Source: an uncultured virus (IMG/VR IMGVR_UViG_3300032334_001399) (taxonomy: Duplodnaviria; Heunggongvirae; Uroviricota; Caudoviricetes). From it: a stretch of 64,000 bases of DNA. Below, in pieces: positions 1 to 39,489 of this stretch. The notes under the pieces were generated by a model. That model was not told where the DNA came from and ran no database searches. It saw nothing but the letters and a program-made list of their open reading frames with translations. Position 1 is the first letter of the stretch; the number at the start of each line of letters is the position of its first letter. Both the position numbers and the translations under genes were made by a program. The stretch lies in IMG/VR virus record IMGVR_UViG_3300032334_001399; one strand, written 5' to 3'.

Positions 1-98
1 ATGCAAGCGCCCAGGGTGCGACACGATGTCGCAGGGTTTCCCCTAGTGTGGTATTTTTGCACACCCCCTTGACACGCGCCCAAATTATATGCTATAAT
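1..98. promoter_or_regulatory. Divergent promoter module, copy 1 (leftward -35 at window edge, TGCGAC-N5-GTCGCA palindrome, rightward sigma70-like promoter)
   Basis: ATGCAA at 1-6 (TTGCAT on minus strand); palindrome TGCGACA-CGA-TGTCGCA at 17-33; TTGACA 69-74, 18 bp, TG-C-TATAAT 93-98; same layout recurs at 1118-1215. Confidence 0.6.
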
Positions 99-139
99 TT
101 GGCGCCAGCGGTGTTGTTTTTTTGCAACACCTGGTCATT

Positions 140-346
140 TTAAATTACATAATTAACAATGCCTATGCAATTGGCAATTAAAAACGCCCCATTAAGTGTG
201 CCCAATGCTTTATCTCGCCGCATTAGTGCAATTATTAGCCAAGATATTGATCCAGTCGCAAAGCAGATATAACCCCAATTCATTACGCCCATTGCAACCA
301 GAAAAGATCCTAATATGCTGGTGATAGTACCAATCCATGCTAACAT
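140..346 (-). CDS. Small hypothetical membrane protein (about 3 TM segments)
   Basis: 68 aa, almost entirely hydrophobic; start overlaps the stop of the SprT-like ORF. Confidence 0.7.
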   Translation of the reverse strand: MLAWIGTITSILGSFLVAMGVMNWGYICFATGSISWLIIALMRRDKALGTLNGAFLIANCIGIVNYVI

Positions 347-708
347 TATAATTCCATGTCGTGATAGGTGTTAGGTGTTGCGCCATAGTTTAGCATAATA
401 TCCTGCCAGGTTTTACCATGCCAACGATTACCTGCTGGTGTGCCATTAAGGTTATAGTCAACCTGATGCGCTATTTCATGTACCATAATTTCGGAGAGCA
501 TACGGTCATGGTGTTTATTAAAGAATTTAGTACCAAGATCTATTACATTAGCTTCCATAAAGCAACGGCCCGCAGTCTTAGTTAATCTGTTATTAAGTTT
601 AATAACGGGCATTGGGAATAGTGCAAGCCTTGTGTAAATGTTAGTATAACGAACCCATATTTTAGTCGCCTGAGCCTGAATTGTGGCATTTAGTGTTGCG
701 ACGGTCAT
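346..708 (-). CDS. SprT-like zinc metalloprotease
   Basis: RLTKTAG, HEIAH (HExxH) and HGKTWQ motifs typical of the SprT family. Confidence 0.85.
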   Translation of the reverse strand: MTVATLNATIQAQATKIWVRYTNIYTRLALFPMPVIKLNNRLTKTAGRCFMEANVIDLGTKFFNKHHDRMLSEIMVHEIAHQVDYNLNGTPAGNRWHGKTWQDIMLNYGATPNTYHDMEL

Positions 709-730
709 GGGTTCGTTATCCTAGTTTAGA

Positions 731-1057
731 TTAGATTGGCTTGGAATTAGCCAATGCTTCAAAGATCGCTTTTAATGCGCTCTTATTAGCTTTGGTCAAC
801 GATTCGATGTCATTCTCAGGCAAGCGCAAGATTGCGCCGATTGCATCAGCATGAGCATCTTTTTTCACAACGGGTTCACCCGTTTTGGTTTTGTATGCTT
901 TTTTCTGATACACACCTTCGCGTGACAGTTTAGCAACGATTGAGCGAACGGATTTACCCATTGCCAATGCAATGCTCTCCACGCTAACACCAGCGGTATA
1001 ATCCGCGATTACCCGAGCGGTTTGCTCAGGGCTATAGTTTACGGCTTTTTCTGCCAT
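731..1057 (-). CDS. A2: T5 A2-like pre-early DNA-binding protein (108 aa, start corrected to 1057)
   Basis: SD AAGGAGAG precedes ATG at 1057; segments SVRSIVAKLSREGVYQK and IESLTKANKSALKAI resemble T5 A2 as recalled; own promoter upstream. Confidence 0.65.
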   Translation of the reverse strand: MAEKAVNYSPEQTARVIADYTAGVSVESIALAMGKSVRSIVAKLSREGVYQKKAYKTKTGEPVVKKDAHADAIGAILRLPENDIESLTKANKSALKAIFEALANSKPI

Positions 1058-1094
1058 TTTGCGCTCTCCTTGTGAGTGCTGTTTCGATGTAGTA

Positions 1095-1123
1095 ATTATA
1101 GGCCAGTCAACCATACAATGCAA
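1095..1123 (-). promoter_or_regulatory. sigma70-like promoter for the A2-like gene
   Basis: Minus strand TTGCAT (1123-1118), 17 bp, TATAAT (1100-1095). Confidence 0.8.
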
Positions 1124-1133
1124 GCGCAAATTC

Positions 1134-1222
1134 TGCGACGTGTTGTCGCAGGGTAAATACCTATGTTGTTTTTTCGCCCAGGGGGTTGACGCGGGGTGAC
1201 CGCCCATGCTAGTAGGGCGGTT
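1134..1222. repeat. Promoter module, copy 2 (palindrome, TTGAC box, inverted repeat)
   Basis: TGCGAC-GTGTT-GTCGCA 1134-1150 followed by GGGT; TTGACG at 1186; ACCGCCC-N9-GGGCGGT inverted repeat; offsets match copy 1. Confidence 0.6.
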
Positions 1223-1305
1223 AGTAGACTTTATAATTATTATAACTATATGGGCCCTCCCACACGGCCAACTTTAGAAAAATCTCCACAAAACTTTCGG
1301 TGCCG

Positions 1306-1455
1306 TTACCAATGATGAATTACACCCAACACAATTACCAAATTTGTCAATAAGTAGCACAAGACTATAAACGTTCTAATCCAACAAACTACGTCAGCCT
1401 CACTGTCAGTCAAACCATACTTATCACCTAGTGCTTTTGCCCACAGTCGCCACAC
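1306..1455 (-). CDS. Small hypothetical membrane protein (49 aa, GTG start)
   Basis: SD GGAGA then GTG at 1455; MWRLWAKALG... with a C-terminal hydrophobic helix; promoter just upstream. Confidence 0.65.
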   Translation of the reverse strand: MWRLWAKALGDKYGLTDSEADVVCWIRTFIVLCYLLTNLVIVLGVIHHW

Positions 1456-1477
1456 AGATTTCTCCCAGAAAAATACT

Positions 1478-1506
1478 ATTATAGCATTAAAAGTATAAAA
1501 ATTCAA
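1478..1506 (-). promoter_or_regulatory. sigma70-like promoter (leftward, divergent pair)
   Basis: Minus strand TTGAAT, 17 bp, TG-C-TATAAT. Confidence 0.75.
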
Positions 1507-1537
1507 GTAAATTTTAACCCACACTAAAAACCACATG

Positions 1538-1566
1538 TTGACTTTGTGTTGCCTGAGTGATATAAT
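1538..1566 (+). promoter_or_regulatory. sigma70-like promoter heading the plcP-agt-terS-terL operon
   Basis: TTGACT 1538-1543, 17 bp, TG-A-TATAAT 1561-1566. Confidence 0.85.
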
Positions 1567-1591
1567 GTTAGGAAATCTCGGAGGCACTTTT

Positions 1592-2365
1592 ATGCACTAC
1601 CGCGCAATTTTTATTAGTGATGTACACTTGGGTACCAAAGCCTGCAAAGCTGAATACCTAAGCCATTTTTTAAAGCAACATACCTGCGAGGAACTTTACC
1701 TAGTCGGTGATATTATCGATGGTTGGAAAGTCAAGCAAAACAAGCTGCGCTGGGCCAATTCACATACCAATGTAATTCGTCATGTTTTAGCCAAAGCCAA
1801 TCGTGAAAAGACCCGAGTGGTGTATGTAGCCGGCAATCACGACGAGTTTCTTCGTCCACTAATCTCATATGGCTTACAATTTGGCAGAATCGAGGTAGTA
1901 AATCAGTGTGAGTATATAGACTTTAACAACCAACGCTGGCTAGTTACCCACGGCGATATGTTTGATGGTATTACCAGATTAGCACCATGGCTAGCTTGGC
2001 TAGGCGACAGTGCCTATGATTTTGTCTTAGGACTAAACACCCATTTTAACCAGTGGCGTCACAGACTAGGCTTTGGCTACTGGAGTTTATCACAGTGGTT
2101 AAAGCATAAAGTAAAACGTGCCACCAACTTTATATTTCAGTTTGAGGAAACTATTACCAAGTACGCAAGTAAACGTAACTTTGACGGCGTAATCTGTGGT
2201 CATATTCACAAAGCTGAGATTAAGCTGGTTCAGGGCGTAGGTTACATGAATTCGGGCGACTGGGTAGAATCGTGTACTGCACTAGTGGAGACCATGGATG
2301 GTGAATGGCAGATTATTACTTGGAGACCCAAAGGTGAGCAAAACAGTACTAGTAGTAACGGATAA
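1592..2365 (+). CDS. plcP: PlcP-like metallophosphoesterase (intracellular phospholipase C; LpxH-like annotation family)
   Basis: SD GGAGG before ATG 1592; calcineurin-like motifs SDVHLG, GDIIDGW, GNHD, HGD, GHIH, NSGDWVES; GNHD rather than LpxH-type GNRD; adjacent GT4 gene. Confidence 0.75.
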   Translation: MHYRAIFISDVHLGTKACKAEYLSHFLKQHTCEELYLVGDIIDGWKVKQNKLRWANSHTNVIRHVLAKANREKTRVVYVAGNHDEFLRPLISYGLQFGRIEVVNQCEYIDFNNQRWLVTHGDMFDGITRLAPWLAWLGDSAYDFVLGLNTHFNQWRHRLGFGYWSLSQWLKHKVKRATNFIFQFEETITKYASKRNFDGVICGHIHKAEIKLVQGVGYMNSGDWVESCTALVETMDGEWQIITWRPKGEQNSTSSNG

Positions 2366-3335
2366 TGTTCCACAACAAGTTAATGGAGTGGTTACAACGT
2401 TCCACAACTTGGAACGCGAGGCAAATCGCCACGGCTATGATTTTATATACTGTGATCCCCGGCAGTTCCCTAATTGTGGTGCTCCTGGTTATGGGGATAT
2501 TAGGCTATCGTGGCCTCGTGGCGTTGGTCGGGTACTTGAAACCGTAAACCCTGATTATGTGCACATTGCCACTGAAGGCCCACTAGGGCTGGCAGCACGC
2601 TGCTGGATGGACCGGCATGGCTGGCGGTATAACACTAGTTATCACACCAAGATTCCAGAAGCACTTAAACGCTATTACAAAATTCCAGAATCGTGGACTT
2701 ACCGCTACTTGCGCTGGTTTCACAAGCATTCGGGTAAGGTTTTAGCTACCACAGTCAGCATGGTTGATGAACTTAAGCAGCATGGCTTTTGTGGTAATAT
2801 TGTGCCCTGGACCCGCGGCGTAGATAGAACGCAGTTTTATCCACTAGAAACCGCACGCACCAGCACCTATCCTACACTACTCTGGGTTGGTCGTGTATCG
2901 GTGGAAAAGTCATGTGAAGATTTTTGCCAACTGGACTATTTAGGTGCCAAAAAAATTGTAGTAGGCGATGGGCCGCAACTCAATTACTTGCAGCAAAAAT
3001 ATCCCGAAGTCCGATTTGTGGGTATGAAAACCGGAGCAGAATTAGCCCACTACTACCAACAAGCAGATTGTTTAGTGTTTACTAGCCGTTGGGATACTTT
3101 TGGTATTGTAATGCTGGAATCCATGGCTTGTGGTACACCAGTGGCAGCCTATCCAGTTTGTGGTCCCAAGGACGTTATTGAGCTAGACAGAACCGGCTAT
3201 ACCAGCCACGATCTTAAGTTGGCAGTGGTTCGTGCACTGGCAATTCCACGTCACGTAGTTTTAGTGGCTAGTTATCGTTGGTCGTGGGAAAAGTGCTGGC
3301 ATATATTTGAGTATAACCTGATAAGGAGACTATAA
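2334..3335 (+). CDS. agt: GT4 family glycosyltransferase, Agt-like (glycolipid synthase)
   Basis: GTG at 2334 after GGAG; QVNGVV, HIATEGPLG, SYHT, GRVSVEKS and DTFGIVMLESMACGTPVAAYPV motifs; overlaps the plcP-like gene. Confidence 0.75.
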   Translation: MSKTVLVVTDNVPQQVNGVVTTFHNLEREANRHGYDFIYCDPRQFPNCGAPGYGDIRLSWPRGVGRVLETVNPDYVHIATEGPLGLAARCWMDRHGWRYNTSYHTKIPEALKRYYKIPESWTYRYLRWFHKHSGKVLATTVSMVDELKQHGFCGNIVPWTRGVDRTQFYPLETARTSTYPTLLWVGRVSVEKSCEDFCQLDYLGAKKIVVGDGPQLNYLQQKYPEVRFVGMKTGAELAHYYQQADCLVFTSRWDTFGIVMLESMACGTPVAAYPVCGPKDVIELDRTGYTSHDLKLAVVRALAIPRHVVLVASYRWSWEKCWHIFEYNLIRRL

Positions 3336-3655
3336 TGTCACAAGAAAAACTAGACGAAGCACACGCCAAAGGTCAGCTAATTGAAAAACTTACCTTTGCA
3401 CTGCTACCACTGTTATTTACCTGCGTAGTCTACTTAATGACTGCACTACAAAACCTACAACACGACGTTACCATCTTAAACGGCAAAATTTCACTAGTGG
3501 TGACCAGCGATAACAAGCAGGCTACTAATACTGGTGCTGAGTTGGCACGTGAAAAACTGCGTCAGGACCTAGAGCGTGAAATTCAAGCTAATCGCGAACT
3601 AATACACCTTAATCGTGAACGTATTGTTATCCTAGAAGAAAAGTCAAGAAAATGA
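3335..3655 (+). CDS. Hypothetical protein, one TM helix plus coiled coil
   Basis: 106 aa, SD AAGGAG, TAATG overlap with the upstream gene. Confidence 0.7.
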   Translation: MSQEKLDEAHAKGQLIEKLTFALLPLLFTCVVYLMTALQNLQHDVTILNGKISLVVTSDNKQATNTGAELAREKLRQDLEREIQANRELIHLNRERIVILEEKSRK

Positions 3656-4134
3656 ACCTAACCCCAACCAGTGCACCCGCTGAGGTACTGGAAATATCAC
3701 CAGAAGCACTGGAAGTTGCCAACTGCTACTTGCAGTGCCAAGATGCTAGAGCTGTAGCAGACAACTTGTCTATGCCAGTAGAGTCAGTTTCAACCATTTT
3801 AGCACGCCGCGAAGTCAAAGCATATATCAACCAAGTTTTCTTTGACTTGGGGTTTAATAACCGTTTTAAAATGCGCGCTGCTATGGATGCCGTCTTAAAA
3901 CGCAAGTTTAAAGAAATGGAGGAGGCTGACGTTGGCTCGAACAAGGACATTGCTGAACTCTTAGCACTATCACACAAAATGTCAATGGAAATGTTGGACA
4001 GAGAAATTCAGCTGGAAAAGCTGCGTAGTGAACGCGCCGGACCTAAATCGCAAGTAAATGTGCAAATCAATGAAGGTGGAGACGGAACCAAGTACGGAGC
4101 ACTTATTTCTAGGCTCCTAGGAGATAAACTATAA
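3652..4134 (+). CDS. terS: Terminase small subunit, T5-like
   Basis: ISPEALEVANCYLQC, EVKAYINQVFFDLGFNNR, HKMSME resemble T5 TerS; upstream of terL. Confidence 0.85.
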   Translation: MNLTPTSAPAEVLEISPEALEVANCYLQCQDARAVADNLSMPVESVSTILARREVKAYINQVFFDLGFNNRFKMRAAMDAVLKRKFKEMEEADVGSNKDIAELLALSHKMSMEMLDREIQLEKLRSERAGPKSQVNVQINEGGDGTKYGALISRLLGDKL

Positions 4135-4144
4135 GGAGTTTAAG

Positions 4145-4420
4145 GTGGACGTAGTAAAATTAATAGGTGAAGTAGGATTCCCAATTGCTGCGGCCGTTAG
4201 CGCAGGTTATTTTGTATTTTTAACCCTAAAGTTTATTTTAGCTGGAGTAACCAGCGGAGTGCACAATCTTGCACAAATTACAGAAAGACTAGACGCCAGA
4301 ATAGACACCATGACAGCTCAGCTAGAGCGTATTGATACCCGTGTAAGCTATGCACTAGGCCTAAGCCCAGACTATAGCAGAATGGCTCGCAGTGAGTTAA
4401 AAGATTTAAGGAAAGACTGA
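4145..4420 (+). CDS. Small membrane protein (GFPI N-terminal TM plus coiled coil; YvrJ/holin-like)
   Basis: SD AAGGAG, GTG start; VGFPIAAA TM helix. Confidence 0.65.
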   Translation: MDVVKLIGEVGFPIAAAVSAGYFVFLTLKFILAGVTSGVHNLAQITERLDARIDTMTAQLERIDTRVSYALGLSPDYSRMARSELKDLRKD

Positions 4421-4707
4421 TGGATATGGTAGAAATTGTAAACCGCTATGGTTTTCCTATTTTAGCAGCTATGGGCATGGGGTATTTTATTTACCATGTA
4501 TGGAACTGGGTAGTCACAGACATAAAACCTACTATAGGCAAAGCTACCAATACTTTAATTAACTTAATCGACCGTGTACGTGTCTTAGACAACGATTTGA
4601 TCAGACTAAACGAAAAAGTAAATACTGTGCTACAACTACGGGGTAAATTAATTGAAGTAGAGCGTATAGAAGCTAATAAAAAAATAAATGAGGGTCATGG
4701 TGCTTAA
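4420..4707 (+). CDS. Small membrane protein, similar in layout to the preceding gene
   Basis: YGFPILAA TM helix plus coiled coil; TGATG overlap with the preceding gene. Confidence 0.65.
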   Translation: MDMVEIVNRYGFPILAAMGMGYFIYHVWNWVVTDIKPTIGKATNTLINLIDRVRVLDNDLIRLNEKVNTVLQLRGKLIEVERIEANKKINEGHGA

Positions 4708-5989
4708 AGTTAGTCGAGACGATGTAGACTGCGACGAAATCACAGAGTTTCCTGTAGAAACCAGATTTATTAAACTGCCAATTGAAAACTACTTAAAATT
4801 GTTGGGTGCTTGGGACACCATGAATCGTCCACAGATTGCCTTAATCAACGCAATCAATAATCCCAAGTATAGATTTGTATGCGCTGCACTTGCTAGACGA
4901 CTAGGCAAAACCTACATCAGTAATATTATTGCACAGCTAGTCTCACTAGTGCCCGGTTGCAATGTGCTTATTATTTCACCTAACTATAATCTCTCCAGTA
5001 TTTCATTTGAACTACAGCGCAGGTTTATCAGACACTTTGACCTAGAAGTAGAGCGCGATAACTTAAAAGACAAAGTTGTAGAACTATCAAATGGCAGCAC
5101 TATCCGCATGGGCTCACTATCAACTGTAGACAGCACAGTTGGACGCAGTTATCAAATTATCTTATTTGACGAGGCTGCACTAGGCGATGATGGCGAGTCA
5201 GCATTTAACGTGCAGCTGCGCCCCACACTAGACCGACCTAACAGCAAAGCTATTTTTATTTCAACACCCCGCGGTCAGCAAAACTGGTTTAGTCGTTTTT
5301 ATCAACGTGGTTTTGGTAGTGAGTATCCTGAGTGGTGCAGCCTACAAGCAGACTACACTGAAAATTCTAGAATGGCAGAGTCTGATGTGGCAGAAGCTCG
5401 CCGATCGATGTCAAAAGCTGAATTTGAGCAAGAATACTTAGCCAGCTTTAATGTGTTTGAGGGTCAAATTTATAATTTTGATCGTGAAGCGGGAGTTGTA
5501 GAATATGCGCATCAAGACGGTTGTGAGTACATTGCTGGGTGTGATCCCGGCTATCGCGATGCTACTGCTTTCGTGGTTATTAGTTATAATCCTGTTAGTG
5601 ACCAGTTTCATATCGTAGATGAATACCTAAAAAGTGAAGCTACCACAGACAAGCATGCTGTAGCATTTCGTGAGTATATTGACAAGTGGCAGGTAGAAGT
5701 ATTATTTATTGATTCGGCAGCAGCACAATTTGCTGGTGACCTTGCATATACTTATAACATTTCTACTACTAAAGCTAAAAAAGACGTTTTACCCGGTATT
5801 GCCTATGTACAAACACTAGTAGAAACTGGCAGGCTAAAAATTGCTCCGCACTGTACAAACGTCTTAGACGTTATGGACCAATATCGTTGGGACAAACGTG
5901 AAACATTGACTCGGGAAAAGCCAGTGCACGATAAGTACTCACACATGGCTGACGCCATTCGTTATGCACTGTATACATACACTGTCTAG
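4688..5989 (+). CDS. terL: Terminase large subunit, T5-like (start may be 4697)
   Basis: Walker A ARRLGKT, Walker B ILFDEAA, ISTPRG, RNase H-like nuclease (GCDPG, DAIRY). Confidence 0.95.
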   Translation: MRVMVLKVSRDDVDCDEITEFPVETRFIKLPIENYLKLLGAWDTMNRPQIALINAINNPKYRFVCAALARRLGKTYISNIIAQLVSLVPGCNVLIISPNYNLSSISFELQRRFIRHFDLEVERDNLKDKVVELSNGSTIRMGSLSTVDSTVGRSYQIILFDEAALGDDGESAFNVQLRPTLDRPNSKAIFISTPRGQQNWFSRFYQRGFGSEYPEWCSLQADYTENSRMAESDVAEARRSMSKAEFEQEYLASFNVFEGQIYNFDREAGVVEYAHQDGCEYIAGCDPGYRDATAFVVISYNPVSDQFHIVDEYLKSEATTDKHAVAFREYIDKWQVEVLFIDSAAAQFAGDLAYTYNISTTKAKKDVLPGIAYVQTLVETGRLKIAPHCTNVLDVMDQYRWDKRETLTREKPVHDKYSHMADAIRYALYTYTV

Positions 5990-6006
5990 GTCATAAAAAT
6001 TTTATG

Positions 6007-6035
6007 TTGACTTCGTCATGCTTTGGGTGTACAAT
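6007..6035 (+). promoter_or_regulatory. sigma70-like late promoter (dps to head genes)
   Basis: TTGACT, 17 bp, TACAAT; AT-rich upstream. Confidence 0.75.
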
Positions 6036-6070
6036 ACCAGTATTATAAAAAAATTATTGGGTAAAAAATA

Positions 6071-6511
6071 ATGGACCGAACTGAATACTACCTAGAACTT
6101 AAACGCGTTTTTGCCAGTGAGTTTAGCTTTTACCTAAAAGCTGCTAATTTTCATTGGAATGTAGAAGGCGAACCTTTTTACCAACTACACTTAATGTTAG
6201 AGCGCATCTATAACGAAGTTTTAGAGTCCATTGATACCTATGCTGAAGAATTGCGTGCCCTACAAATTGTTACACCTGCTAGTCTATCACAGTTTTCACA
6301 GTTAACATATATTAGTGATGAAAATGCTCCAGGCGACTGGAAAGGCCTACTGCAAGAACTGCTAATGGATTCAGATATGATGGCACTAAAATTTCAGCAG
6401 CTATTTATGGTGGCTGAAGAATTTGGTGATCATGGACTGTCAAACTTCTTGGCAGATCGTCAAGATGCACACAAAAAACATAGTTGGATGTTACGCGCAA
6501 GTTTAAAATAA
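6071..6511 (+). CDS. dps: Dps family DNA-binding mini-ferritin
   Basis: FHWNVEG, QLH and IDTYAE ferroxidase-centre residues; C-terminal HKKHSWML. Confidence 0.9.
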   Translation: MDRTEYYLELKRVFASEFSFYLKAANFHWNVEGEPFYQLHLMLERIYNEVLESIDTYAEELRALQIVTPASLSQFSQLTYISDENAPGDWKGLLQELLMDSDMMALKFQQLFMVAEEFGDHGLSNFLADRQDAHKKHSWMLRASLK

Positions 6512-6943
6512 ATGGCAAAAAATACAAACAAACGGATTCCCGTCAAACACGTTAGAGATAAAGCCAAGTCGGCTTATGAAAAGCAAGACACTTGCTATAT
6601 TTGTGCAACTAGTCAGGACTTGGAATTGCATCACCTGCACAGTGTTACCCTGTTGTTAGAAAACTGGGCACGACGTAAAGGTTATGATATTTCAACTGAT
6701 GAGGGAATTTTAGCTGTTAGGGACGAGTTTATTAGTGAACATCATAGTGAGTTATACGAGCAGGTTTACACCCTATGTAATCCTCATCATATAGCGCTCC
6801 ATGGTGTGTACGGTAAAACTCCTCAGCCTGGCAGCGAACCCAAACAAGCACGCTGGATTGAAATTCAACGTGAAAAAGTTGCTAATGGCGGTCGTGCTGT
6901 TCCTAAGCAAAGCTATGGAAGTTTCTTTAGCGAATTTACTTAG
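6512..6943 (+). CDS. T5-like HNH nicking endonuclease
   Basis: CYIC...LELHHLH...TLCNPHHIALH; position between terL and portal as in T5. Confidence 0.85.
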   Translation: MAKNTNKRIPVKHVRDKAKSAYEKQDTCYICATSQDLELHHLHSVTLLLENWARRKGYDISTDEGILAVRDEFISEHHSELYEQVYTLCNPHHIALHGVYGKTPQPGSEPKQARWIEIQREKVANGGRAVPKQSYGSFFSEFT

Positions 6944-6951
6944 GATAAATC

Positions 6952-8139
6952 ATGGGTTGGATTAATAGTAGTGTAGAATGGATTCGCGAAAAGCTGAATC
7001 CTGCACAAGTTAGAATTGCACAAGGTGAGGGAACGCACATTCCCACAACTTCAAAGATTAGCTATCAACAAGCATTTAGAAATCTAGAAGTTGTTAATCG
7101 TGGTGTAAATATGGTTGTTAGCGCAGCCGCGTCACTAGACTATGACGTAAAAGACAAGTTAAACGAAGGCATTGTTAGTGGTATGAGGCAAAAGCAGTTA
7201 GTAAACTTGCTTAACTTTAGACCTAATCCCTATCAAAGCGTACAAGAATTTCGTCAGGCCATTTTTAGTGACCTGATCTTAGAAGGCAACGTATTTATAC
7301 ACTTTGATGGTACTTTTATGTATCATCTACCTGCACAATATGTAGAAATACTTACTGATACTAAAACATTTATTCGTGGTTATCGTTACAGCGGTTACAT
7401 TGAGTTTGAAGAAAGAGATGTGTTTCACTTTCGCGACTTAAGTTCACAAAGTATCTACCGCGGTGCTAGTCGCCTAGAAGCTGCACAACACAGTATTGAC
7501 CTACTTAATTCAATGCATCAGTTTCAAACACAGTTTTTTGATAACGGTGCCACCTTTGGTTTTGTACTTACCAGCGATAACACACTATCACAAGTAGCCA
7601 AAGAAAAAACTATTCAGTACTGGCTGCAACGTTATAGTAATAAAACTGGTGGCAAACGCCCTGTTATCCTAGACAGCGGTTTAAAACCACATTCAATTAG
7701 TAATAACAGCTACAAAGATCTAGACTTTGACTTGGCAGTTAAAACACACAACGATTTGCTATTACAAGTAATTGGTGTACCGCCCATTTTACTAGACGGT
7801 GGTAACAATGCTAATATTTCGCCTAACTTGCGCCTGTTCTATCTAGAAACAGTAATGCCTATAATTAGAAAATTTATTAGTGCACTAGAACGTTATTATG
7901 GATACGATGTAGATGCAATTACTAGTAATGTAAGTGCACTACAACCAGAATTAAAAGACATTGCAACTTATCATCAAACACTAGTAAATGGTGGTATTAT
8001 CACACCCAACGAGGCTCGTGTAGAATTGCGATATGAAAAAATGCCGGGTCACGATGAACTGCGTGTTCCTGCTAATATTGCTGGTAGTGCTGTAAACCCA
8101 GCACAGGGCGGTCGTCCCACCGCAACCCCTAAAGAATAA
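6952..8139 (+). CDS. Portal protein (HK97/T5 type)
   Basis: 395 aa; PNPYQS, EGNVFI, FFDNGA, GVPPILL, ITPNEAR motifs. Confidence 0.95.
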   Translation: MGWINSSVEWIREKLNPAQVRIAQGEGTHIPTTSKISYQQAFRNLEVVNRGVNMVVSAAASLDYDVKDKLNEGIVSGMRQKQLVNLLNFRPNPYQSVQEFRQAIFSDLILEGNVFIHFDGTFMYHLPAQYVEILTDTKTFIRGYRYSGYIEFEERDVFHFRDLSSQSIYRGASRLEAAQHSIDLLNSMHQFQTQFFDNGATFGFVLTSDNTLSQVAKEKTIQYWLQRYSNKTGGKRPVILDSGLKPHSISNNSYKDLDFDLAVKTHNDLLLQVIGVPPILLDGGNNANISPNLRLFYLETVMPIIRKFISALERYYGYDVDAITSNVSALQPELKDIATYHQTLVNGGIITPNEARVELRYEKMPGHDELRVPANIAGSAVNPAQGGRPTATPKE

Positions 8140-8151
8140 CAGGGAGAATAT

Positions 8152-10119
8152 ATGGTAGATAAAAATAAAGTACTTACAATAACGAGTACTTTTACTAAGA
8201 GTAATCTGCCTACCAAAGATATGAGCATTGATAGTATCATGATCGAAGGTTACGCAAGTACAGTCGATACTGATCGTCAAGGTGATATTGTACCAGCCAC
8301 GGTGTGGAAAAATGGTATGCAAAATTACTTGAAAAATCCAGTAATTTTAGCCTATCACGATCACAGCGAACCTGTTGGTAGAATGGTAGATCATAGAATT
8401 GACAGTAAGGGTTTGTGGATTAAAGCCAGAATTTCTGCAGCAGCAGGAGAAGTCTTTAATCTCATCAAAGACGGAGTACTTACTGCTTTTAGTATTGGTT
8501 TTCGTATCGCTGATGCGGAATATAATGCAGCTGAAGAGCTGTTTGTTGTTAAAGACTTGGAACTACATGAGATTTCAGTAGTGTCCGTACCTGCAAATCA
8601 AAACACACTGTTTAGTTTATCTAAGTCGTTTAAAACCGACGAAGAGCTTAAATCTTTTAAACTGCAATTTGCGCCTAAGCCGGAATCAGCTAAAGGGCTC
8701 GAGTCCACTATGGAAGCAAATAGCGACACTACAAAGGAATGGAACATGGATTCTAAAGAATTGGAAAAATTGCTTGCTGACACAGCTAAGCAAGCTGCTG
8801 CTGAAACAGCAAAAGCTATTGCTGAAACACAAGCCAAAGCTGCTGCTGAAAAAGCTGCTGCTGAGCGTGCACAAGCTGAGCTTGATGCTAAAGTCAAAGC
8901 TGCTGTTGCACAAGTGCAAACAGTGGACACAGGTGCTGAGCGCCTACTTGCAGAACTTGAAAAGCGCGTTGCTGATCAAGAGCAAACACACAAAGCTGCA
9001 CTAGAGGGCCTAGAGGCTTCACTACGTGAAAAAGCTAGCGAACTCGAGGCTATTAACAAGTCACGTATGCAGTTCCAGGACATCAAAGCAGGTGAAATGT
9101 CTTATGCAGACAAAGAAAAGGCTGTTTTCTTGTCAAAGATGGCTGGTAAATCAGTTGACGGCACAAAGTTTGGCCGTGATATGGTTCAAAAATACGGTCA
9201 GCACCTACCCTCAGCTACATGGGAACTAGAAGTTTCACTAAACATGGAACAAGAAGTTCGCCGTCGTTTAGTGATTGCGCCACTATTCCGTAACATTGCT
9301 ATGCAAACTAACGTAATGACCATTCCGGTCAACCCAGAAGCTGGTGTTGCTAGCTGGGTTACTAACGCACAGTTTGGTAGTTCAAATAGTGCTGGTGGTA
9401 CAACTGCTACTACTACATCAAACGTTGGTACACCTGGTTCAGGCAGCCCACACCTTATCAAAGAAATCACACTCAACGCATATAAAGTTGCTACCAACGA
9501 GTACACAGCTTATGAAGAAGAGGAAGATAGCCTTATCGCTATTATGCCTGTAATTCGTGATGCTATGGTTCGTCGCGTTAGTCGTGCTGTTGATCGCGCT
9601 TTCTTGCGTGGTGCTGGTAGCGGTAGCGATCCAGTTGCTGGTCTTACAACATATGACGCATCTGGTACTGTTACTACAGTTTCAGCTAGCAGCGGTACTG
9701 CTACAGTTGCTAACCTACGTGCACTTCGTAAAGGTCTTGGCGTTTGGGGTCTTGATCCAGCTGATGTTGTTTTTATCGTTAACAGCGATGTTTACTACAA
9801 CTTGCTTGAGGATTCAACCTTCCAAACAATGAACCAAGTTGGTCCACAAGCTACATTGCTAACTGGTCAAATCGGTCAAATCGGTAATAGCCCAGTTCTC
9901 GTCTCTGGCGAGTTTGCTGATCGTGCTAACACAGCGTTTGGCGCACTAGCTGTTGCTCCTAGTAACTTTATTGTTGGTAATCAGCGTGGCCTACGTATCG
10001 ACACACAAGAACTAGTCGAAACACAACGTCGTGTTATGGTTGCCAGCCTACGTACTGGTATGACTCGTGTTACTAGCAATCTTGGTAACGCCGTTGCTAC
10101 ACTCAAGTATACAACCTAA
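8152..10119 (+). CDS. Prohead protease fused in frame to the major capsid protein (internal start likely at 8746)
   Basis: N-terminal HK97-type protease (IEGYAS, DRQGD, YHDH, FSIGF, EISVVSVPAN), Ala/Glu/Lys-rich scaffold segment, then HK97-fold capsid domain. Confidence 0.92.
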   Translation: MVDKNKVLTITSTFTKSNLPTKDMSIDSIMIEGYASTVDTDRQGDIVPATVWKNGMQNYLKNPVILAYHDHSEPVGRMVDHRIDSKGLWIKARISAAAGEVFNLIKDGVLTAFSIGFRIADAEYNAAEELFVVKDLELHEISVVSVPANQNTLFSLSKSFKTDEELKSFKLQFAPKPESAKGLESTMEANSDTTKEWNMDSKELEKLLADTAKQAAAETAKAIAETQAKAAAEKAAAERAQAELDAKVKAAVAQVQTVDTGAERLLAELEKRVADQEQTHKAALEGLEASLREKASELEAINKSRMQFQDIKAGEMSYADKEKAVFLSKMAGKSVDGTKFGRDMVQKYGQHLPSATWELEVSLNMEQEVRRRLVIAPLFRNIAMQTNVMTIPVNPEAGVASWVTNAQFGSSNSAGGTTATTTSNVGTPGSGSPHLIKEITLNAYKVATNEYTAYEEEEDSLIAIMPVIRDAMVRRVSRAVDRAFLRGAGSGSDPVAGLTTYDASGTVTTVSASSGTATVANLRALRKGLGVWGLDPADVVFIVNSDVYYNLLEDSTFQTMNQVGPQATLLTGQIGQIGNSPVLVSGEFADRANTAFGALAVAPSNFIVGNQRGLRIDTQELVETQRRVMVASLRTGMTRVTSNLGNAVATLKYTT

Positions 10120-14816: not shown

Positions 14817-17800
14817 ATGGCTACAGAGAATACTACAAACCATATTGTTAATGTTACTGATGAAGGTACTACCGACAAAGTAATTAAAAAAATTGGTACA
14901 TTACTTAGCAAAGTAGAAGCTGTTCAAGCAGCTGCTAGTAAAATTAATATGGGCTCTACTGCTCAGGCTACAACACAAACATCTACACCTAAAGGATACT
15001 CTGCAGCTTCTGCATCTATTCCTAGTAGTGGAACTGCAGGTTCTAGAGCCGCTGCACAATCAGCAAAACCTAGTGGTATGGAAACACAGCAGTATAATGC
15101 TCTTCGTGGAACTGCTGGAGTAACTGGCGCCAGTGCTAGAGATTTTGCTAAACAATCAGAAGGTATGGGCGGATTAGTTCGTTTGTATGCTACTTTTGCT
15201 GCTAATTTATACGCTGTAACTGCTGCTTTTAATGGCTTAAAAACGGCAATGGACACTACTAATATGATCCGTGGCTTAGATCAGCTTGGAGCAAGTAGTG
15301 GTGTTGCTTTAGGTAGTTTAAGTAAACAACTATTAGAAGTAACGCAAGGTGCGCTTAGCATGCGTGAAAGCATGAAAGTAACTGCACAAGTTACTAGTGC
15401 TGGCTTAGGTTCACAAGCTGTTCTTAAACTTGGTGAAGCAGGCACAAAAATTGCACAAGCACTAGGCTTAGATGCAGCAGACTCAATTACCAGACTAACC
15501 AGAGCAGTTACTAAGCTAGAGCCAGAACTCTTAGACGAATTAGGTATATTTGTAAAAATTGATGATGTTGTACAAAAATACGCACTTAGCGTAGGCAAAA
15601 CTTCAGCACAAGTAACTGAGTTTGAACGTCGTCAAGCATTTTTAAATGCTGTAATAGATCAAAGTAAAAGTAAATTTGGCGATATTGCTGTTGACGTAAA
15701 TCCTTATAATCAGCTAGCAGCATCCTTAGCTAATGTGGGGCAAAAAATTGCTGAAGTTATAAATACTGCCATTGGCCCCCTTGTATCACTACTAGCAAGT
15801 AGTCCTACAGCACTATATACAACTGTAGCAGCTATTAGTGCACTTTTAGTTAAACAAGCAGTTCCTGCTATAGGTGATTTTAGAAATAGCTTAAGAGCAA
15901 GTGTTGCAGAAGCCGCTGACTTTGCTAAAAGAAAGGCTGAAGATGCTGTTGCGGCTGAAGCTGCTCGTGCTAAACAAATTGAAGATAAGGTTAGAAGCAG
16001 TGCAGATAAACAAGTTAAAATAGTTGAAGATGCAGAAGCAAAAATAGATGCATTAAAAGATCCTGCTAAAAAGAAAGGTGGTTTACTTGCAAAAGTTGCA
16101 AAAGCAGATGCCGGAGAAATTGAGGATAAAGGTTATATTCAAAAATTGCGAGATAAGGCTGCCGCAGAAGAAAAGAAAGGTAGAACTGAGTCTGCACAAT
16201 CTCACAGAGAGTATGCTACTGCTTTAGAAGGTCACGTTGCTGCCGAAAAAGAATTATTTCGTGTACAAGCAGAGGCAAGAGCAGCCGCAGAAAAAGATCC
16301 TAGTTTACTGAGTACTCGTGGACAGGCAATAAAATCTTCGTTAGATTCTCAACTTCAGCTAACTAAAGCTAATATTATTGCTAATGCAGGATATGCTGGT
16401 AGTATTGATTCTTTAAGTGGAGCTTGGTCTGGTTTAAAGAAAGAAATCAAAGATGCAAATCTTACAGGATTTACAAAAGCTACTACAACTTTGCAGGGTG
16501 GTTTTGCCATTTTAACAGGAAAAATTAGTACTGCAGTTAGTGCTTTTGGAACCTGGGGTGCAGCATTAGCTGCAGGCATAGAAATTGCTGCACTATTAAG
16601 TAGTTGGATTAGTAAAAATTATCAAGAAATGGTTAAGTTTGATCAGTCAATGGATCAGCTAAAAGCTACTACTAAAAATACTGCTGCTGTACTAGAAAAA
16701 TTTAGTCAAATAGATCCATTAGGAAAACTTGCCGTTACTTCTACTCTAGCAAGAGCAACTGCTCTTAATGAATTAACACAGGGAGTTGAAAAAACTATTG
16801 ATGCATTACTAACGGTAGATAAAGCTAGTAATGCTTGGGATAGATTCTGGGATGGTGCATTTAGTGTTGTTGGTAAAGATTTAAAGAGTACTAATTCTAG
16901 AGAAATAGGTGTTGCAATTGCAGAAAGCATTGCACTTGCAGATACTGGTCCAGCAAAAGACGCCTATATTGCAAAAATTAAAGAAATTACTGGTGGCAAG
17001 GGTACTACCGCCGCTGGTTTTGTTGAATTTGCAGATACTAGTAATGCTGATAAATACAAAGATGCAGTTAAAAAAATCACAGAAGCCCAAAAAGATTTTA
17101 ATAAATCACAACAAGAAAGTGCTTCCAGACTGCAAGCAGTACAAGATAGTTTTAAAAACACTAATAAAGCTTATAGTGAATTAGCGCAATCTCTTAGTGG
17201 TAGTACACCTCTATCAAAATTTGCTGAACAAATTCAAACTAGCGCATTTACCTTAACTGACTCTTTAAAAAGTCCTGAACAATCAATTAAAACAATTATT
17301 GGCTTATTAAATAATCCAACTGAAGCCGGATTTTTATCCAAGGAGTCTTATGACAGGCTAATGGCTTCTAGTGAGGAAATAAGGAATGTTTATAAAGAAA
17401 TTCAATTTCAAGAAGCTACTATTCGTGAAAAACAAGCAAAGCTAGCAGATCCAAGCATTGGTGGAGTAGAAAGAGCAGACATTCAAGATGTTATTAAGCG
17501 CGCTGAAGAGCAAATAAGAAAATTACAGGCCAGTGCAGTAACAATAGCTAGTCCTATAGTCAAAGCATTAAGTGAGGATAATTTTAGAATAGCTGGGCAG
17601 GCACTTGCTCAAGAAACAGCAGCATCACTTAACAAAGCCTCAGAAACTATTAGAAAGTCTTATGGTAGCTTATTTACTGGTGAGCGAGCTGTTAGTTTTG
17701 AACAAGATATAGCTAAAAAAGATTTAGCTGTAAAAGTGCAGGGTATAGAAACAACGCTAGAATTAATTAAATCAAATATTGAATTAAAACTAGCAATTGA

Positions 17801-20800
17801 AAAAGATACTGCACAACAAGTTATTGACAGTTCTAAGTCTACTCCTGCACAAATAGCTGCTGCTAAAGCAACTGTTGAAAAGGCAGGATTTAAACAGGAA
17901 ATTATTGGCTCTGCTACTCCTCAAGCTACATCTAATAAATTTGCTACAAGCGGAAACGAACTTCAAAGAGATGCCGCTAAAGAGGCTCAAAGTTCTGTAA
18001 AAGTATTAGTTGCTGGTCAAAATACCCTTAATGAACTTAAAGCTAGTGGAGCAGCTATTGATATACGTGCAGCTATTGAAACTGCACGAGCTCGCGGAAA
18101 AGCTGCAGCCGATCAAAAACGTCAAATAAATGCTTCATTACAAGAACAAGTAAAACAACTAGACGTAACTGAAAAATTAAACGGAACTTTAACAGCTGCG
18201 CAGTTTGCACAAAAACAAACTCTACAAACTCAAATTAGGCAAAATGAAAGTGCAGCAATATTGCTGGGCTTACAAACTGAGATTAAAGCGTTAGAATCTA
18301 CTAAAGTACAAGACAGTGATCAAGCACGTAAAAAAGACGAACTTGCTGCTAAACGAGCTGAACTAGGCAGACTACAAAGTGCTGAAAGTGGTAAAGCCAG
18401 CGTTCAAACTGAAGAGCAAAAGCTACAGTTAATGGAACAGCAGCTTAAAAATATTGAGTTACAATATCGTATAAAAACAGCAGATCGTGACGAGGAGTTT
18501 AAGTCTGCAGAAAGTATCTTGCAACTAGAGGCTCGTAGAACAAGCCTACAAGAAGAAATTTTAAATGCTTCACAAAGTATGGGTTTTATTCTACAAAAAG
18601 AATTTTTAACTCAAAAAGAACTAATTGATCTTAGAAAACTTGATAATAGCTATGCTCAAGATAAATTAAACACAATAAACAAGGCTAATCAAGAATTAGA
18701 TTTACAGCAAAAAATTATTGCTAGTGCTAATGAAAAACTTAAAGTTGCACCAGCTAATGCAGAGGCATCGGCTGATAAAGCGCGTGCTGAAAAAGCTCAA
18801 ACAAGAATTAACCAAACACTTCAAGGCACTTTAGCTATAATTGAACAGGAAAGAGTTGCTAGAGAAAAGAATATTAAACTAGCTGCTGATTTAGCTAAAT
18901 TTGAAGCTGGAACAGCAGAAATAGCAAAAGAAAAATTAACTATTCTTGATATGCAGATTGAAAAAGAAACCCTTTTACGCGACATTGCTAAATCTAAAAT
19001 AGACTTAGACTCAGCTACTCTAGAACGTAAAAAAGATACGCTGTTAATTACTCAGTCACAGTATTTATTAGAAAAAGGTATTATTGAGCAAAAACAATTA
19101 CAATCTAATGCTGATGATAAAATTGCTAATGCAGAGTCTGCGGCCGCTAAAAAGAGAGTTGAATTAGAGAAAAATCTAGCTGATGCTAGAAAACGCGCCG
19201 AATTAGTTAGACAAAATCAACCTTTAGAAACACAAATAGATGAATTTACTGGCACACAAACATTTGGTCCACCAAGTGCTGCGCTACAAGCAGCAGAATT
19301 AGCAGTAAAGTCACTTGAAGCACAAACTGAAAATTTGGAGGCTAATCTTAAAAATCAAGTAGACACTATTCGCGGCATTGTAAAGCAAGAAAAAGAACGA
19401 GCACTAGTTAATTCTCAACTAGCTGTATTTATTGAAAGACAAAATGAAGAGTATAAGCGACAAAAAGATCTTAGAGACGTAGAAGCACTACAACTACAAC
19501 TAATAAGCAATACAGAACAAAGTAAGTTAACTTTACAATCAACTTACCTAGAAGGCAGAAAATCAATAGGATTTATACTTGACGCAGAATATCAAAAACA
19601 AAAAGGCTTACTAGACTTAGAAAAATCTAAGGCAGATAAGATTATTCAACAAAATAACTTAAAAAAGACCGCTGCAGAGCAAGCTGACACAGATAAGAAA
19701 AATCTTGAATTAGCACAAGAGCGTTTAAGAATTGCTAATGCTAGTGCTCAACGTGAACTTGATGAAAAAAATAAGCTATTATTTGGCCAAGGACTACAGT
19801 TTGAATCAACACAACCTACTAGTAATAAAACTCAGGCACAGATAACAGCAGAACAAGATTTAGCTACTGCAACAGCAACTCAAGCTGCTAATAAAGCAAT
19901 TTCAGACGAAAAACAAGCTGCACTTGATAGGGAAGCTGCAGCTCGTGAAAAAATAATAAGTTTACAAGCTAGACAAAATGTATTGCAGGCTGAGCAAACT
20001 GAGTTAATGAAAAAAGTTGGTGCTGCAACTGAAACACTTAATGCGCTATTTGCTGGTATGGGTGGAAATACCCCTCAAATTGCTAAATCAATTGGTGATA
20101 TAGGTACAGCTATTATATCTAATAGAAAAGAACAAGAGATTTTAAATAACAAACGCGAATCAGAAGTTGAAATCGCAAAATCTTCTAGCGATACTCAAGG
20201 CGAGTACTTAGAAAAATTAGGCGGTATTAACAAAAAGTTTGCCAAAGAACAGCAAAAATTAGATGTAGATACTGCAATGAAAAGTGCTGGTGCTGCTAAA
20301 ATGATGTTTAAAGAAAAAACAGCTGCTTATAAAGTATTTGCTGCTTTTGAAAAAGCAATGATGGTAGTTAAGCTAGCTACTTTAGCTGCAGAAATTTCAG
20401 GAGAACTTGGTCTTACTGCAGTAAGCGTAGCTGCAAGTGGAGCACGTGCTGGTGCTAAAGGTACTGAATCTATTGTTAATGCAATGAAAGATTTACCCTT
20501 TCCTATTAGTTTAGCGGCTGGTGCTGCTGTAGCTGCAATAGTAGCTTCACTATTAGGCAGTGCATTTGCCAAAAAACCAACTGGTTTTGGAGGTGTTACT
20601 GCAGCTCAGCGTCAAGAAACCCAAGGCACTGCTATGGGGTATAATGCTGAAACTGGTGAAAAAATACAAGTTCGTCGTGGTGTATTTGGTGATGAAAATG
20701 CAAAAAGTGAATCTATTAACAATTCATTAAAACTAATTGCTGCAAATAGCGTAGACGGTTTAGATTATGATAATAAGATGCTTAATGCATTAAATAACTT

Positions 20801-38232: not shown

Positions 38233-39489
38233 ATGGCAACAATTGTTACAAACATTACTGGGGCTACTGCCGTTAATCGTCCCCTTACTAATACTGAACT
38301 TGATAATAATTTTATCAATTTAAATACTGCAATAACTAGTTTTGCAGAAACTGATACACTAGCTACAGTCACTGGTCGCGGAGCAACCACATCTACAGAT
38401 ATTACTCTTGGAAATAGCGTAGCTACTAGCATTACAAATTTTGGTGGTACAACCGCTAATTACTTGCAAACGTCTGCAAATGGTAGTCTCTATGTAAGAA
38501 CTAAAGATCAAACTACTGTTTCATCTAAAGTTTTATATTTACAAACTGGTAATAATACGCTTAGTGGATCAAATACTGGTAATATTAGTATTAAAACAGG
38601 TAATGCTACTGGCGGTGGCGGAGCATTTGCAGGTGATATTAGTATATCACCTGGATCTGGTGATACTGACGGGGCAATAATTACAATAACTGGTGGTCAA
38701 TCTACTGCTGGCACTACATCAACTGGTGGTAGTGTTACAATTAAAGGTGGTGCTAGTGGTACTACAAGTAGTACCACTGCTATTGGTGGAACCCTTTATA
38801 TTTATGGAGGTGAAGTTACCAGTGCTAATAATTTTTCTAAAACTACTGGATCTGTATACATTGACGGTGGCGGTGCTCAAGGTTTAGGTACTATTACATA
38901 TGGTAGTGTTAATATTGGCACTAGTAGTTCCGGCAGTACTAGTGCAACTTCTACAGTTAATATTGGTAATTCAGCAAATACTACTGTTATTAATGGTACG
39001 GTTAAATTACCTAATGTAGGAACTTCTGGTTTTGTTAAACTTGGTACAGGAGGACAACTTTCTGCTGATACTACCAGTTATCTTACTACTAATAGTGCAT
39101 TAGGTACGCCAGCCTCAGGTACACTCTCTAGTTGTACAGTTGATGGCACTAATCCAGTAGGTTATTTAAATATTCCTCAAAATAGTCAATCAGCTGCATA
39201 CACAACAGTATTAAGCGATGCCGGTAAACATATTTATCATCCAGCTGCAGATACTAATGCTAGAACTTATACTATTGCTGCTAATGCTTCAGTAGCTTAT
39301 CCAATTGGAACTGTAATTGCTTTTGTTAATATGACTTCTCAAACAGTTACTATTGCTATTAATAGTGATACTTTGTATTTAGGTAATACAGGTCTAACCG
39401 GTAGTCGTAGTTTAGCGCAGTATGGTGTTGCAAATGCTTTAAAAATTACTAGTACTAGTTGGATTATTACTGGGACGGGACTTACATGA
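38233..39489 (+). CDS. Tail fibre-like protein, Gly/Thr-rich
   Basis: PLTNTELDNNF N-terminus, repeated I.I.GG strands, C-terminal GYLNIPQN...LKITSTSWIITG. Confidence 0.65.
   Translation: MATIVTNITGATAVNRPLTNTELDNNFINLNTAITSFAETDTLATVTGRGATTSTDITLGNSVATSITNFGGTTANYLQTSANGSLYVRTKDQTTVSSKVLYLQTGNNTLSGSNTGNISIKTGNATGGGGAFAGDISISPGSGDTDGAIITITGGQSTAGTTSTGGSVTIKGGASGTTSSTTAIGGTLYIYGGEVTSANNFSKTTGSVYIDGGGAQGLGTITYGSVNIGTSSSGSTSATSTVNIGNSANTTVINGTVKLPNVGTSGFVKLGTGGQLSADTTSYLTTNSALGTPASGTLSSCTVDGTNPVGYLNIPQNSQSAAYTTVLSDAGKHIYHPAADTNARTYTIAANASVAYPIGTVIAFVNMTSQTVTIAINSDTLYLGNTGLTGSRSLAQYGVANALKITSTSWIITGTGLT

Follow-up and report, generated by a model that had tools for sequence, protein, structure and literature searches.

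A plcP-agt-orf106 cassette of T5-like phages, predicted to exchange host phospholipid for glycolipid

Why should a tailed phage carry, at the head of its DNA packaging operon, a pair of genes known from the lipid renovation of bacteria? The question is raised by a stretch of 64,000 nucleotides (nt) from an uncultured virus (IMG/VR record IMGVR_UViG_3300032334_001399, Caudoviricetes), the whole of which we call the window, and in which the genes for a putative phospholipase C (plcP) and a putative glycosyltransferase (agt) lie just upstream of the terminase genes terS and terL. In bacteria, PlcP cuts phospholipids to diacylglycerol, which Agt then glycosylates with glucose or glucuronate, UDP-sugars being the donors (PMC4796936, PMC8528852, PMC8231724). 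A sequence-only reading of the window, prepared without database searches, had likened the phage genes to the PlcP-Agt pair of proteobacteria, and the pair does mirror the bacterial plcP-agt operon; the mobile unit has a third member, orf106, which a cassette of two genes as then proposed did not include. We conclude that plcP, agt and orf106 form a three-gene accessory cassette, which probably swaps the phospholipid of the infected cell for glycolipid, phosphorus being the likely benefit.

The putative phospholipase and its partner glycosyltransferase

The plcP gene (1592..2365, plus strand) encodes a metallophosphoesterase of 257 amino acids (aa), which family scores, motifs, tree and fold mark as PlcP-type, that is, as a predicted Mn-dependent phospholipase C; the Mn dependence of PlcP is reportedly the subject of a 2018 paper by Wei et al. 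The protein scores 47.6 bits on the Pfam model Metallophos and carries the full metal-binding motif set of the calcineurin-like metallophosphoesterases (DxH, GD, GNH[D/E], H, GH, GxH), the ligands D10, H12, D40, N82, H83, H120, H204 and H206 being invariant in 23 sequences. It is 49-58% identical to named bacterial homologues among the matches listed, which come from Pseudomonas, Alcaligenaceae, Hyphomonadaceae, Xanthobacteraceae and Campylobacterota (E 1e-80 to 1e-86 for Pseudomonas, Hyphomonadaceae and Xanthobacteraceae). Characterised PlcPs are mutually 46-51% identical (PMC8528852, PMC9239053), and the field has used a BLASTP E value below 1e-40 to the PlcP of Phaeobacter MED193 as its criterion (PMC4796936, PMC6030836). 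A match to PlcP at E <= 1e-40 was found in 107 of 401 evenly sampled Gammaproteobacteria, at an identity of at most 56% (103 of 397 if four unpublished genomes, G045, G302, G314 and G147, are left aside).

The protein from which PlcP most needs to be told apart is LpxH. Where LpxH has GNRD, the window PlcP reads GNHDEF, and it scores 47.9 bits on the LpxH model NF003743 (cut-off 134) and 34.6 bits on a further one (cut-off 190), so that it shows neither of the two marks of LpxH membership, a score above cut-off and the GNRD motif. The bacterial plcP homologues are equally low on the LpxH model (49-59 bits), and four of the five bacterial genomes that bear such a homologue encode a true LpxH elsewhere (218-334 bits), the fifth having none above cut-off. 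In a tree of 142 sequences four LpxH proteins separate on a branch of 2.03 with support 100. The fold is shared: in a Foldseek search with the AlphaFold model (pLDDT 76) the top 24 listed Protein Data Bank (PDB) matches are all LpxH, at 15-21% identity, E 3e-10 and TM 0.5-0.6, and no solved structure comes closer than that of LpxH, whose metallophosphoesterase fold likewise has a helical insert. Searched directly with the PlcP sequence, the PDB gave no match, and a profile search alone got to LpxH (E 1e-4). Judged by sequence and modelled fold, PlcP would act like a lipid phosphoesterase of the LpxH type and yet is not LpxH, which is a separate paralogue in the bacterial genomes compared.

The agt gene follows at 2334..3335 (plus strand) and encodes a predicted diacylglycerol glycosyltransferase of the Agt/GTcp type within family GT4, with 333 aa from a GTG at 2334 or 345 aa from an alternative ATG at 2298. 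Its Pfam scores are 53 bits for Glyco_transf_4, 69 bits for Glyco_trans_1_4 and 66 bits for Glycos_transf_1, whereas the best NCBIfam models for GT4 enzymes all remain far under their cut-offs, those for lipopolysaccharide (LPS) transferases at 17-25 bits against 385-618. The clade of glycolipid synthases around GTcp of SAR11 and Agt of Agrobacterium was described by Wei et al. through the motifs GRVAXEKN and FPSXTDTFG, a dyad His104-Asp256, with Asp where other GT4 enzymes carry Glu, the donor-site residues Gly16, Arg190, Lys195, Thr257, Phe258, Gly259 and Glu264, and the diacylglycerol-binding residues Thr162, Arg163 and Trp320 (PMC8231724). The phage motifs read GRVSVEKS and FTSRWDTFG, and all 12 of these residues, which are essential in GTcp, are kept, collinear with GTcp (offsets -3 to +2), in 17 of 17 phage sequences. 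The dyad, here H104 and D254, is present in all 17 and in all 23 bacterial GT4 proteins adjacent to plcP, while three more distant, non-Agt GT4 proteins from bacterial loci have Arg and Glu in its place. Agt is 39-46% identical to the bacterial GT4 proteins directly downstream of plcP; by the criterion in use, an Agt is 35-58% identical to a characterised one and less than 25% to GT4 enzymes of other kinds. On both proteins the sequence-only reading is supported: it had described a metallophosphoesterase with GNHD overlapping a GT4 enzyme, taken the former for PlcP rather than LpxH, in keeping with the phylogeny and family scores that group it with PlcP paralogues, and the latter for Agt, in keeping with the Agt/GTcp residues, including the Asp for the usual GT4 Glu.

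Of 80 bacterial loci, 23 have a GT4 gene immediately after the plcP homologue, at gaps of -13 to +33 nt; Sebastian et al. call this plcP-agt arrangement 'type 2' (PMC4796936). The lipid renovation operons of bacteria (Pseudomonas aeruginosa PA3219-PA3218, SAR11 HTCC7211 PB7211_983/PB7211_960, Phaeobacter MED193, S. meliloti SMc00171, A. tumefaciens Atu2297 and M. trichosporium OB3b) resemble the phage pair in enzyme families, order, strand and frequent overlap (PMC4796936, PMC8528852, PMC8231724, PMC9239053). Phage and bacterial pairs have in common the metal ligands of PlcP and the UDP-sugar motifs, His-Asp dyad and diacylglycerol-binding residues of Agt. The phage version differs in its viral carrier, in a phage promoter of the sigma-70 type without a Pho box, in the additional, phage-only orf106, and in that its proteins fall, among the sequences sampled, into clades of viral contigs and unnamed metagenome proteins only.

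The cassette as a unit: synteny, control and distribution

In IMG/VR, 16 contigs were found through plcP (84-97% identical); agt and terS follow in the same order in every one of them, and orf106 in 15. Because these contigs had been found by plcP itself, a second search was anchored on terL, and the cassette was present in eight of nine close relatives (terL at least 89% identical, at least 2.5 kb upstream of terS). An empty site is found in L213 (4189-4865; terL 91% identical), where a small membrane ORF is directly followed by terS between the same flanks, without plcP, agt or orf106. Since all three are missing there together, the mobile unit comprises plcP, agt and orf106, and the close relatives with and without it offer a natural experiment, L213 being the control. 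The three genes are under purifying selection, plcP having a pairwise dN/dS of 0.07, agt one of 0.12 and orf106 one of 0.08, next to 0.064 for terL and 0.083 for the portal gene, values that are rough because dS is near saturation (about 1).

The third gene, orf106 (3335..3655, plus strand), encodes a phage-only protein of 106 aa with one hydrophobic segment and a coiled-coil-like tail, and falls into viral-only protein clusters. Its start and the stop of agt (TAA) have base 3335 in common, and it overlaps terS by ATGA (3652-3655). The overlaps leading into terS had been seen correctly in the sequence-only reading, which makes no mention of the gene lying between agt and terS. For plcP a longer ORF spans 1535-2365; because the promoter would fall inside it and a ribosome-binding site, GGAGG (1579..1583, plus strand), lies 8 nt ahead of the ATG at 1592, we take this ATG as the start. 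The agt ORF extends over 2298-3335, and GTG 2334 is favoured as its start since the homologues measure 332-333 aa and GGAGA lies 8 nt upstream; plcP and agt overlap by 32 nt with this start and by 68 nt with ATG 2298.

At the operon head stands a sigma-70 promoter with an extended -10 (1538..1566, plus strand; TTGACT-17-TATAAT, TG before the -10), which matches the consensus at 11 of 12 positions and ranks best of 13 sites in 1000-6200, where 10.8 are expected by chance. Its hexamers recur in three relatives, and L008 has an 11/12 site heading the operon. Two layouts occur: the promoter lies directly before plcP in the window and three relatives, and before a 50-aa membrane ORF in 12 others. 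A divergent sigma-70-like promoter (1478..1506, minus strand; TTGAAT-17-TATAAT, TG) would serve the small phrog_1679 gene, whose conserved C-terminal 49-54 aa lie inside the minus-strand ORF 1306-1587; two promoter-like sites thus stand back-to-back between the leftward and rightward gene blocks. A second promoter-like site on the cassette (3307-3336; 10/12) falls within the last part of agt, its -10 overlapping the start of orf106, and we take it as chance.

A Pho box was sought as CTGTCATNNNNCTGTCAT with at most three mismatches; the single match in the whole window, at 17350, is away from the cassette (4.8 matches expected by chance), and the result applies to CTGTCATNNNNCTGTCAT, from which the consensus of the host may differ. 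Instead of the upstream Pho box through which PhoB controls the bacterial regulon, the phage cassette has its sigma-70 promoter. A near-consensus sigma-70 promoter and the lack of a recognisable Pho box had both been read from the sequence alone, and both observations hold.

How widely is the module spread among viruses? A profile scan of IMG/VR matched at least 600 viral stretches, of which at least 588 encode a relative of PlcP. The best 74 new viral PlcP loci are 63-70% identical to the window PlcP, whose closest relatives outside the T5-like phages (63-71%) are viral contigs or metagenome proteins among the matches listed; a protein atlas gives its taxonomy as 'Viruses/Bacteria, Uroviricota'. 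In a tree of 228 PlcP sequences the smallest clade to unite the 17 sequences of the T5 clade with the 74 viral ones has 130 members (support 100), the others being 39 metagenome proteins, and includes none of the 92 bacterial sequences, and a corresponding GT4 clade (17, 43 and 22 sequences; support 100) includes none of the 23 bacterial GT4 proteins adjacent to plcP. Both trees were built with FastTree and SH-like support, the bacterial sequences being drawn from the matches listed and the metagenome proteins being without known origin; within this sample, PlcP and Agt each appear to belong to a large virus-associated clade without bacterial homologues. The six annotated viral PlcP loci among these have phage genes in quite different neighbourhoods. 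The window terL found no match in five large viral records whose PlcP is 63-70% identical, a weak negative since the records are incomplete fragments.

Among the 74 viral loci an Agt-type GT4 lies downstream of plcP in 43 and a 236-aa GT2/GT21-like transferase in 15. The latter combination was met again in T5-like phages: in seven of 54 more distant T5-like loci (terL 69-77%), some of which are near-duplicates, a plcP 62-67% identical to that of the window is followed by the GT2 gene between terS and terL. These modules of a sister lineage resemble the window in having a sugar transferase directly after PlcP within the packaging module, and differ in the 236-aa transferase of GT2/GT21 type, for which the bacterial processive GT21 Pgt is the comparison, in the site and in the PlcP identity. 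T5-like phages have therefore acquired a module of PlcP and a glycosyltransferase at two sites, the transferases belonging to two families that are unrelated. In our view, nothing speaks more strongly than this convergence for a coupling of the two activities through diacylglycerol, and for membrane lipid, not LPS, as the target.

Two isolated phages carry plcP in another setting. In Pelagibacter phage Mosig (L001 3894-5729) a gene that bears the annotation 'UDP-2,3-diacylglucosamine hydrolase' encodes a homologue of PlcP with 46% identity, and is divergent from and adjoins a phosphate ABC transporter gene, and in Synechococcus phage S-SRM01 a gene labelled LpxH encodes a PlcP 35% identical. 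Both proteins lie outside the clade of the window, and the grouping of Mosig's with Hyphomonadaceae PlcPs suggests that it was acquired separately. No glycosyltransferase is annotated beside plcP in either genome, and the window GT4 matches neither record. Together with pstS and phoH, phosphate-stress genes of phages, these genes share with the cassette the character of host-derived phosphorus-economy genes of aquatic phages.

The phage around the cassette and its variable neighbours

We tentatively term this freshwater phage T5-like because its large terminase, encoded by terL (4688..5989, plus strand), is 50-51% identical to those of Vibrio phages filed under Demerecviridae; a D5-like regulator, an SbcC-like protein, a ribonucleotide reductase and tail genes were also found in the window. 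A DNA-level search of phage records with the window gave no match, and no tRNA genes were found in it. The small terminase gene terS (phrog_3802; 3652..4134, plus strand) forms the downstream border of the cassette. A rightward gene block extends from about 1.5 kb to 58 kb of the window and holds terS, terL, a ferritin-like protein, portal, a fused protease/capsid gene and tail genes, then a lysis block at about 45-47 kb, further structural genes and PhoH. Past PhoH come leftward replication genes (ribonucleotide reductase, exonuclease, RusA, SbcC-like), and the genes to the left of the cassette, leftward as well, encode a SprT-like protein, the D5-like regulator and the small phrog_1679 product.

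The gap between terS and terL (4134-4718 in the window) is a variable cargo site. Here it holds genes for two small membrane proteins of phrog_18771 (4145-4420 and 4420-4707; together 4145..4707, plus strand), a pair that 12 of 16 relatives lack, as does one population variant from freshwater (run X2, joint 4134 to 4718), while in the sister T5-like lineage (L245 3278-6007) the same gap is filled by plcP, the GT2 gene and two uncharacterised ORFs. The 50-aa membrane ORF (MEIIELMLKAW...) between operon promoter and plcP occurs in L008 (5501-5653) and 11 other relatives; the window is without it and has the phrog_18771 pair downstream of terS, and the two look like alternative layouts. Homologues of phrog_18771 (45-64%) or of orf106 (62-69%) also lie within 4 kb of plcP in unrelated large phages, in four of the 74 loci each (L149, L153, L155 and L198; L147, L148, L162 and L195), and these neighbours may reflect either a loose link in function or mere coincidence among small genes that are common in phages.

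Elsewhere in the window, a PhoH-like protein, named for phosphate starvation (58354-59043, plus strand; Pfam PhoH 219.9 bits), ends the rightward block. The gene between terL and portal (6071-6511, plus strand) encodes a ferritin-like (Dps-type) protein, with 63.9 bits on Pfam Ferritin; it is an unusual cargo gene for a packaging module, and is retained at 77-99% identity in close relatives and at 52-64% in farther T5-like loci. An ORF of 655 aa (8152-10119, plus strand), with phrog_80 (head maturation protease) at its N-terminus and phrog_617 (major head protein) over residues 22-620, looks like a fused protease-capsid gene. Very large proteins are encoded on the plus strand at 53170-58266, 24374-29482, 14817-22841 and 39459-44660; they include one of 1698 aa with zero family matches, one of 1702 aa with a weak tail-fibre match, a tape-measure-like one of 2674 aa and one of 1733 aa with six fibronectin type III repeats. 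Directly after the lysis genes, a 741-aa protein (46671-48896, plus strand) matches YadA-head repeats at 32.7 bits, hinting at an adhesin-like fibre.

What the exchange of lipids would be for

As we picture it, PlcP, a di-metal phosphoesterase that bears a helical insert for lipid binding, as in the LpxH fold type, would remove the phospho-head group from the glycerophospholipids of the host; diacylglycerol would stay behind in the membrane, and the phosphorylated head group would pass in soluble form into the cytoplasm. Agt, as a retaining GT4 enzyme, would then transfer glucose or glucuronate from a UDP-sugar onto the diacylglycerol, and the resulting phosphorus-free glycolipids would keep the bilayer intact. 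Both steps would be driven in the infected cell by the phage's own strong promoter of the sigma-70 type, which would make the cassette independent of the PhoB regulon of the host, and the likely benefit would be phosphorus for progeny DNA in phosphorus-poor lake water. The phosphorus atoms in a phage genome of about 100 kb number about 2x10^5, the phospholipids of a Gram-negative cell 10^6 to 10^7; by this rough estimate, the phosphorus of the membrane corresponds to ten to a hundred phage genome equivalents. We hold the enzymatic reading of PlcP plus Agt with high confidence, and carry the larger part of that confidence over to the phosphorus purpose.

Several points weigh against this account. 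The activities of the enzymes, their substrates, the timing of their expression and their purpose are what we infer from the sequence, the identity of the two proteins to characterised PlcP and Agt is gauged through unnamed or uncharacterised homologues, and the helical insert of the PlcP model (residues 122-194) is of low confidence. The dN/dS values suffer from the saturation mentioned above. Two read-length contigs (151 nt) of a lake metatranscriptome (run X20) fall on plcP, one at 1593-1743 with 3 mismatches and the other at 1769-1915 with 0, and are a weak hint of expression because such libraries can contain DNA; the run reaches two of 30 bins, those uncovered being uninformative on expression. 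As the cassette has no Pho box, its link to phosphate stress rests on analogy and on other phages. The searches made identified neither a host nor a donor, and the host may lack the usual phospholipids, have a plcP of its own or live free of phosphorus limitation.

The alternative that survives best keeps the same enzymes and gives them another purpose, a change of the envelope by which receptors would be altered, superinfection blocked, or lysis or virion assembly prepared. The missing Pho box and the constitutive-looking promoter of the sigma-70 type would suit it, as would the small phage membrane proteins that adjoin the cassette (orf106, the phrog_18771 pair and, in 12 relatives, the 50-aa ORF) and the phrog_18771 genes beside plcP in other phages, and membrane lipid composition has been tied to phage attachment in published work (PMC9938194, PMC9804370). 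The plcP of Mosig, however, adjoins a phosphate-transporter gene, the module occurs in freshwater and oligotrophic settings (PMC10653327), and a remodelled inner membrane is no obvious barrier to adsorption at the outer membrane. We consider this purpose unlikely, with the reservation that phosphorus supply and envelope change are not mutually exclusive.

Far less probable is that the pair works on lipid A or LPS, as an LpxH-like pyrophosphatase with an LPS or exopolysaccharide glycosyltransferase. The database labels point that way, the plcP homologues being annotated 'UDP-2,3-diacylglucosamine pyrophosphatase LpxH' and those of the GT4 protein 'glycosyltransferase involved in cell wall biosynthesis', and the closest solved fold is that of LpxH. 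Against it stand the score far under the LpxH cut-off, GNHD in place of GNRD, the separate LpxH paralogue in the same bacterial genomes and its grouping apart in the tree, the Agt-specific Asp, the His and the diacylglycerol-binding residues of the GT4 protein, and the low scores of the LPS transferase models. An artefact, be it host DNA misjoined to a contig of phage origin or functionless cargo in decay, can hardly be credited: the nearest record, G001, identical to the window, begins at base 4018 and so leaves the cassette outside, and a GC content of 0.451 at 2001-4000, slightly above most of the window, fits a foreign origin, but phage genes lie on both flanks, 16 independent viral contigs show one and the same gene order, freshwater metagenome contigs from three studies cover 30 of 30 bins of 1-8200, and the frames are intact with low dN/dS. 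Mis-assembly, named in the sequence-only reading as grounds for giving up its claim, is excluded by this synteny and coverage together with the empty site.

The exchange of phospholipid for glycolipid, with phosphorus as its benefit, can be carried further, and we do so tentatively, at somewhat below even confidence. PlcP with a diacylglycerol glycosyltransferase, be it an Agt-type GT4 or a GT2, may be a module maintained by viruses, which passes from phage to phage, forms a clade of its own apart from the cellular enzymes and was taken up by T5-like phages on two or more occasions, its two sites both lying in the packaging module; it would be expressed constitutively, with the host membrane as phosphorus store, and membrane lipid would be a major and so far uncounted source of phosphorus for the production of viruses in lakes. 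T5 destroys the DNA of its host early in infection. If a T5-like infection therefore prevents the host Pho regulon from being switched on, the phage would have to express the pathway constitutively, as part of this extended proposal has it.

In the literature searched (open-access papers and preprints) a PlcP or Agt encoded by a phage is nowhere described, nor does any paper found treat the Mosig or S-SRM01 gene as PlcP; virome papers file 'lpxH' as an LPS auxiliary gene (PMC10653327, PMC13384950). The sequence-only reading had known of no phage PlcP-Agt pair, and as far as the literature goes this stands; the pair is not unique, in view of the very large virus-associated clade and of the plcP that Mosig carries under the label of LpxH. 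What we describe is the phage version of a known bacterial pathway, apparently unpublished for viruses. New are the relative with an empty site, by which the unit is defined as one of three genes, the missing Pho box, the second insertion, of GT2 type, in a sister T5-like lineage, and the placement of both genes in clades without sampled cellular members.

Phosphorus limits bacteria and phage production in lakes and oceans, and the known phosphorus genes of phages (pstS, phoA-type) work on uptake. The cassette, if our reading is true, would represent a different strategy, in which the phage mines the membrane of its host while leaving the bilayer intact until lysis, and since PlcP has found partners in two glycosyltransferase families without kinship, it seems that the diacylglycerol must be re-capped for infection to succeed. 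Viral 'lpxH' hits in viromes, at present placed under LPS synthesis (PMC10653327), would then need to be read anew, and there would be a lipid signature of infection to seek in the field.

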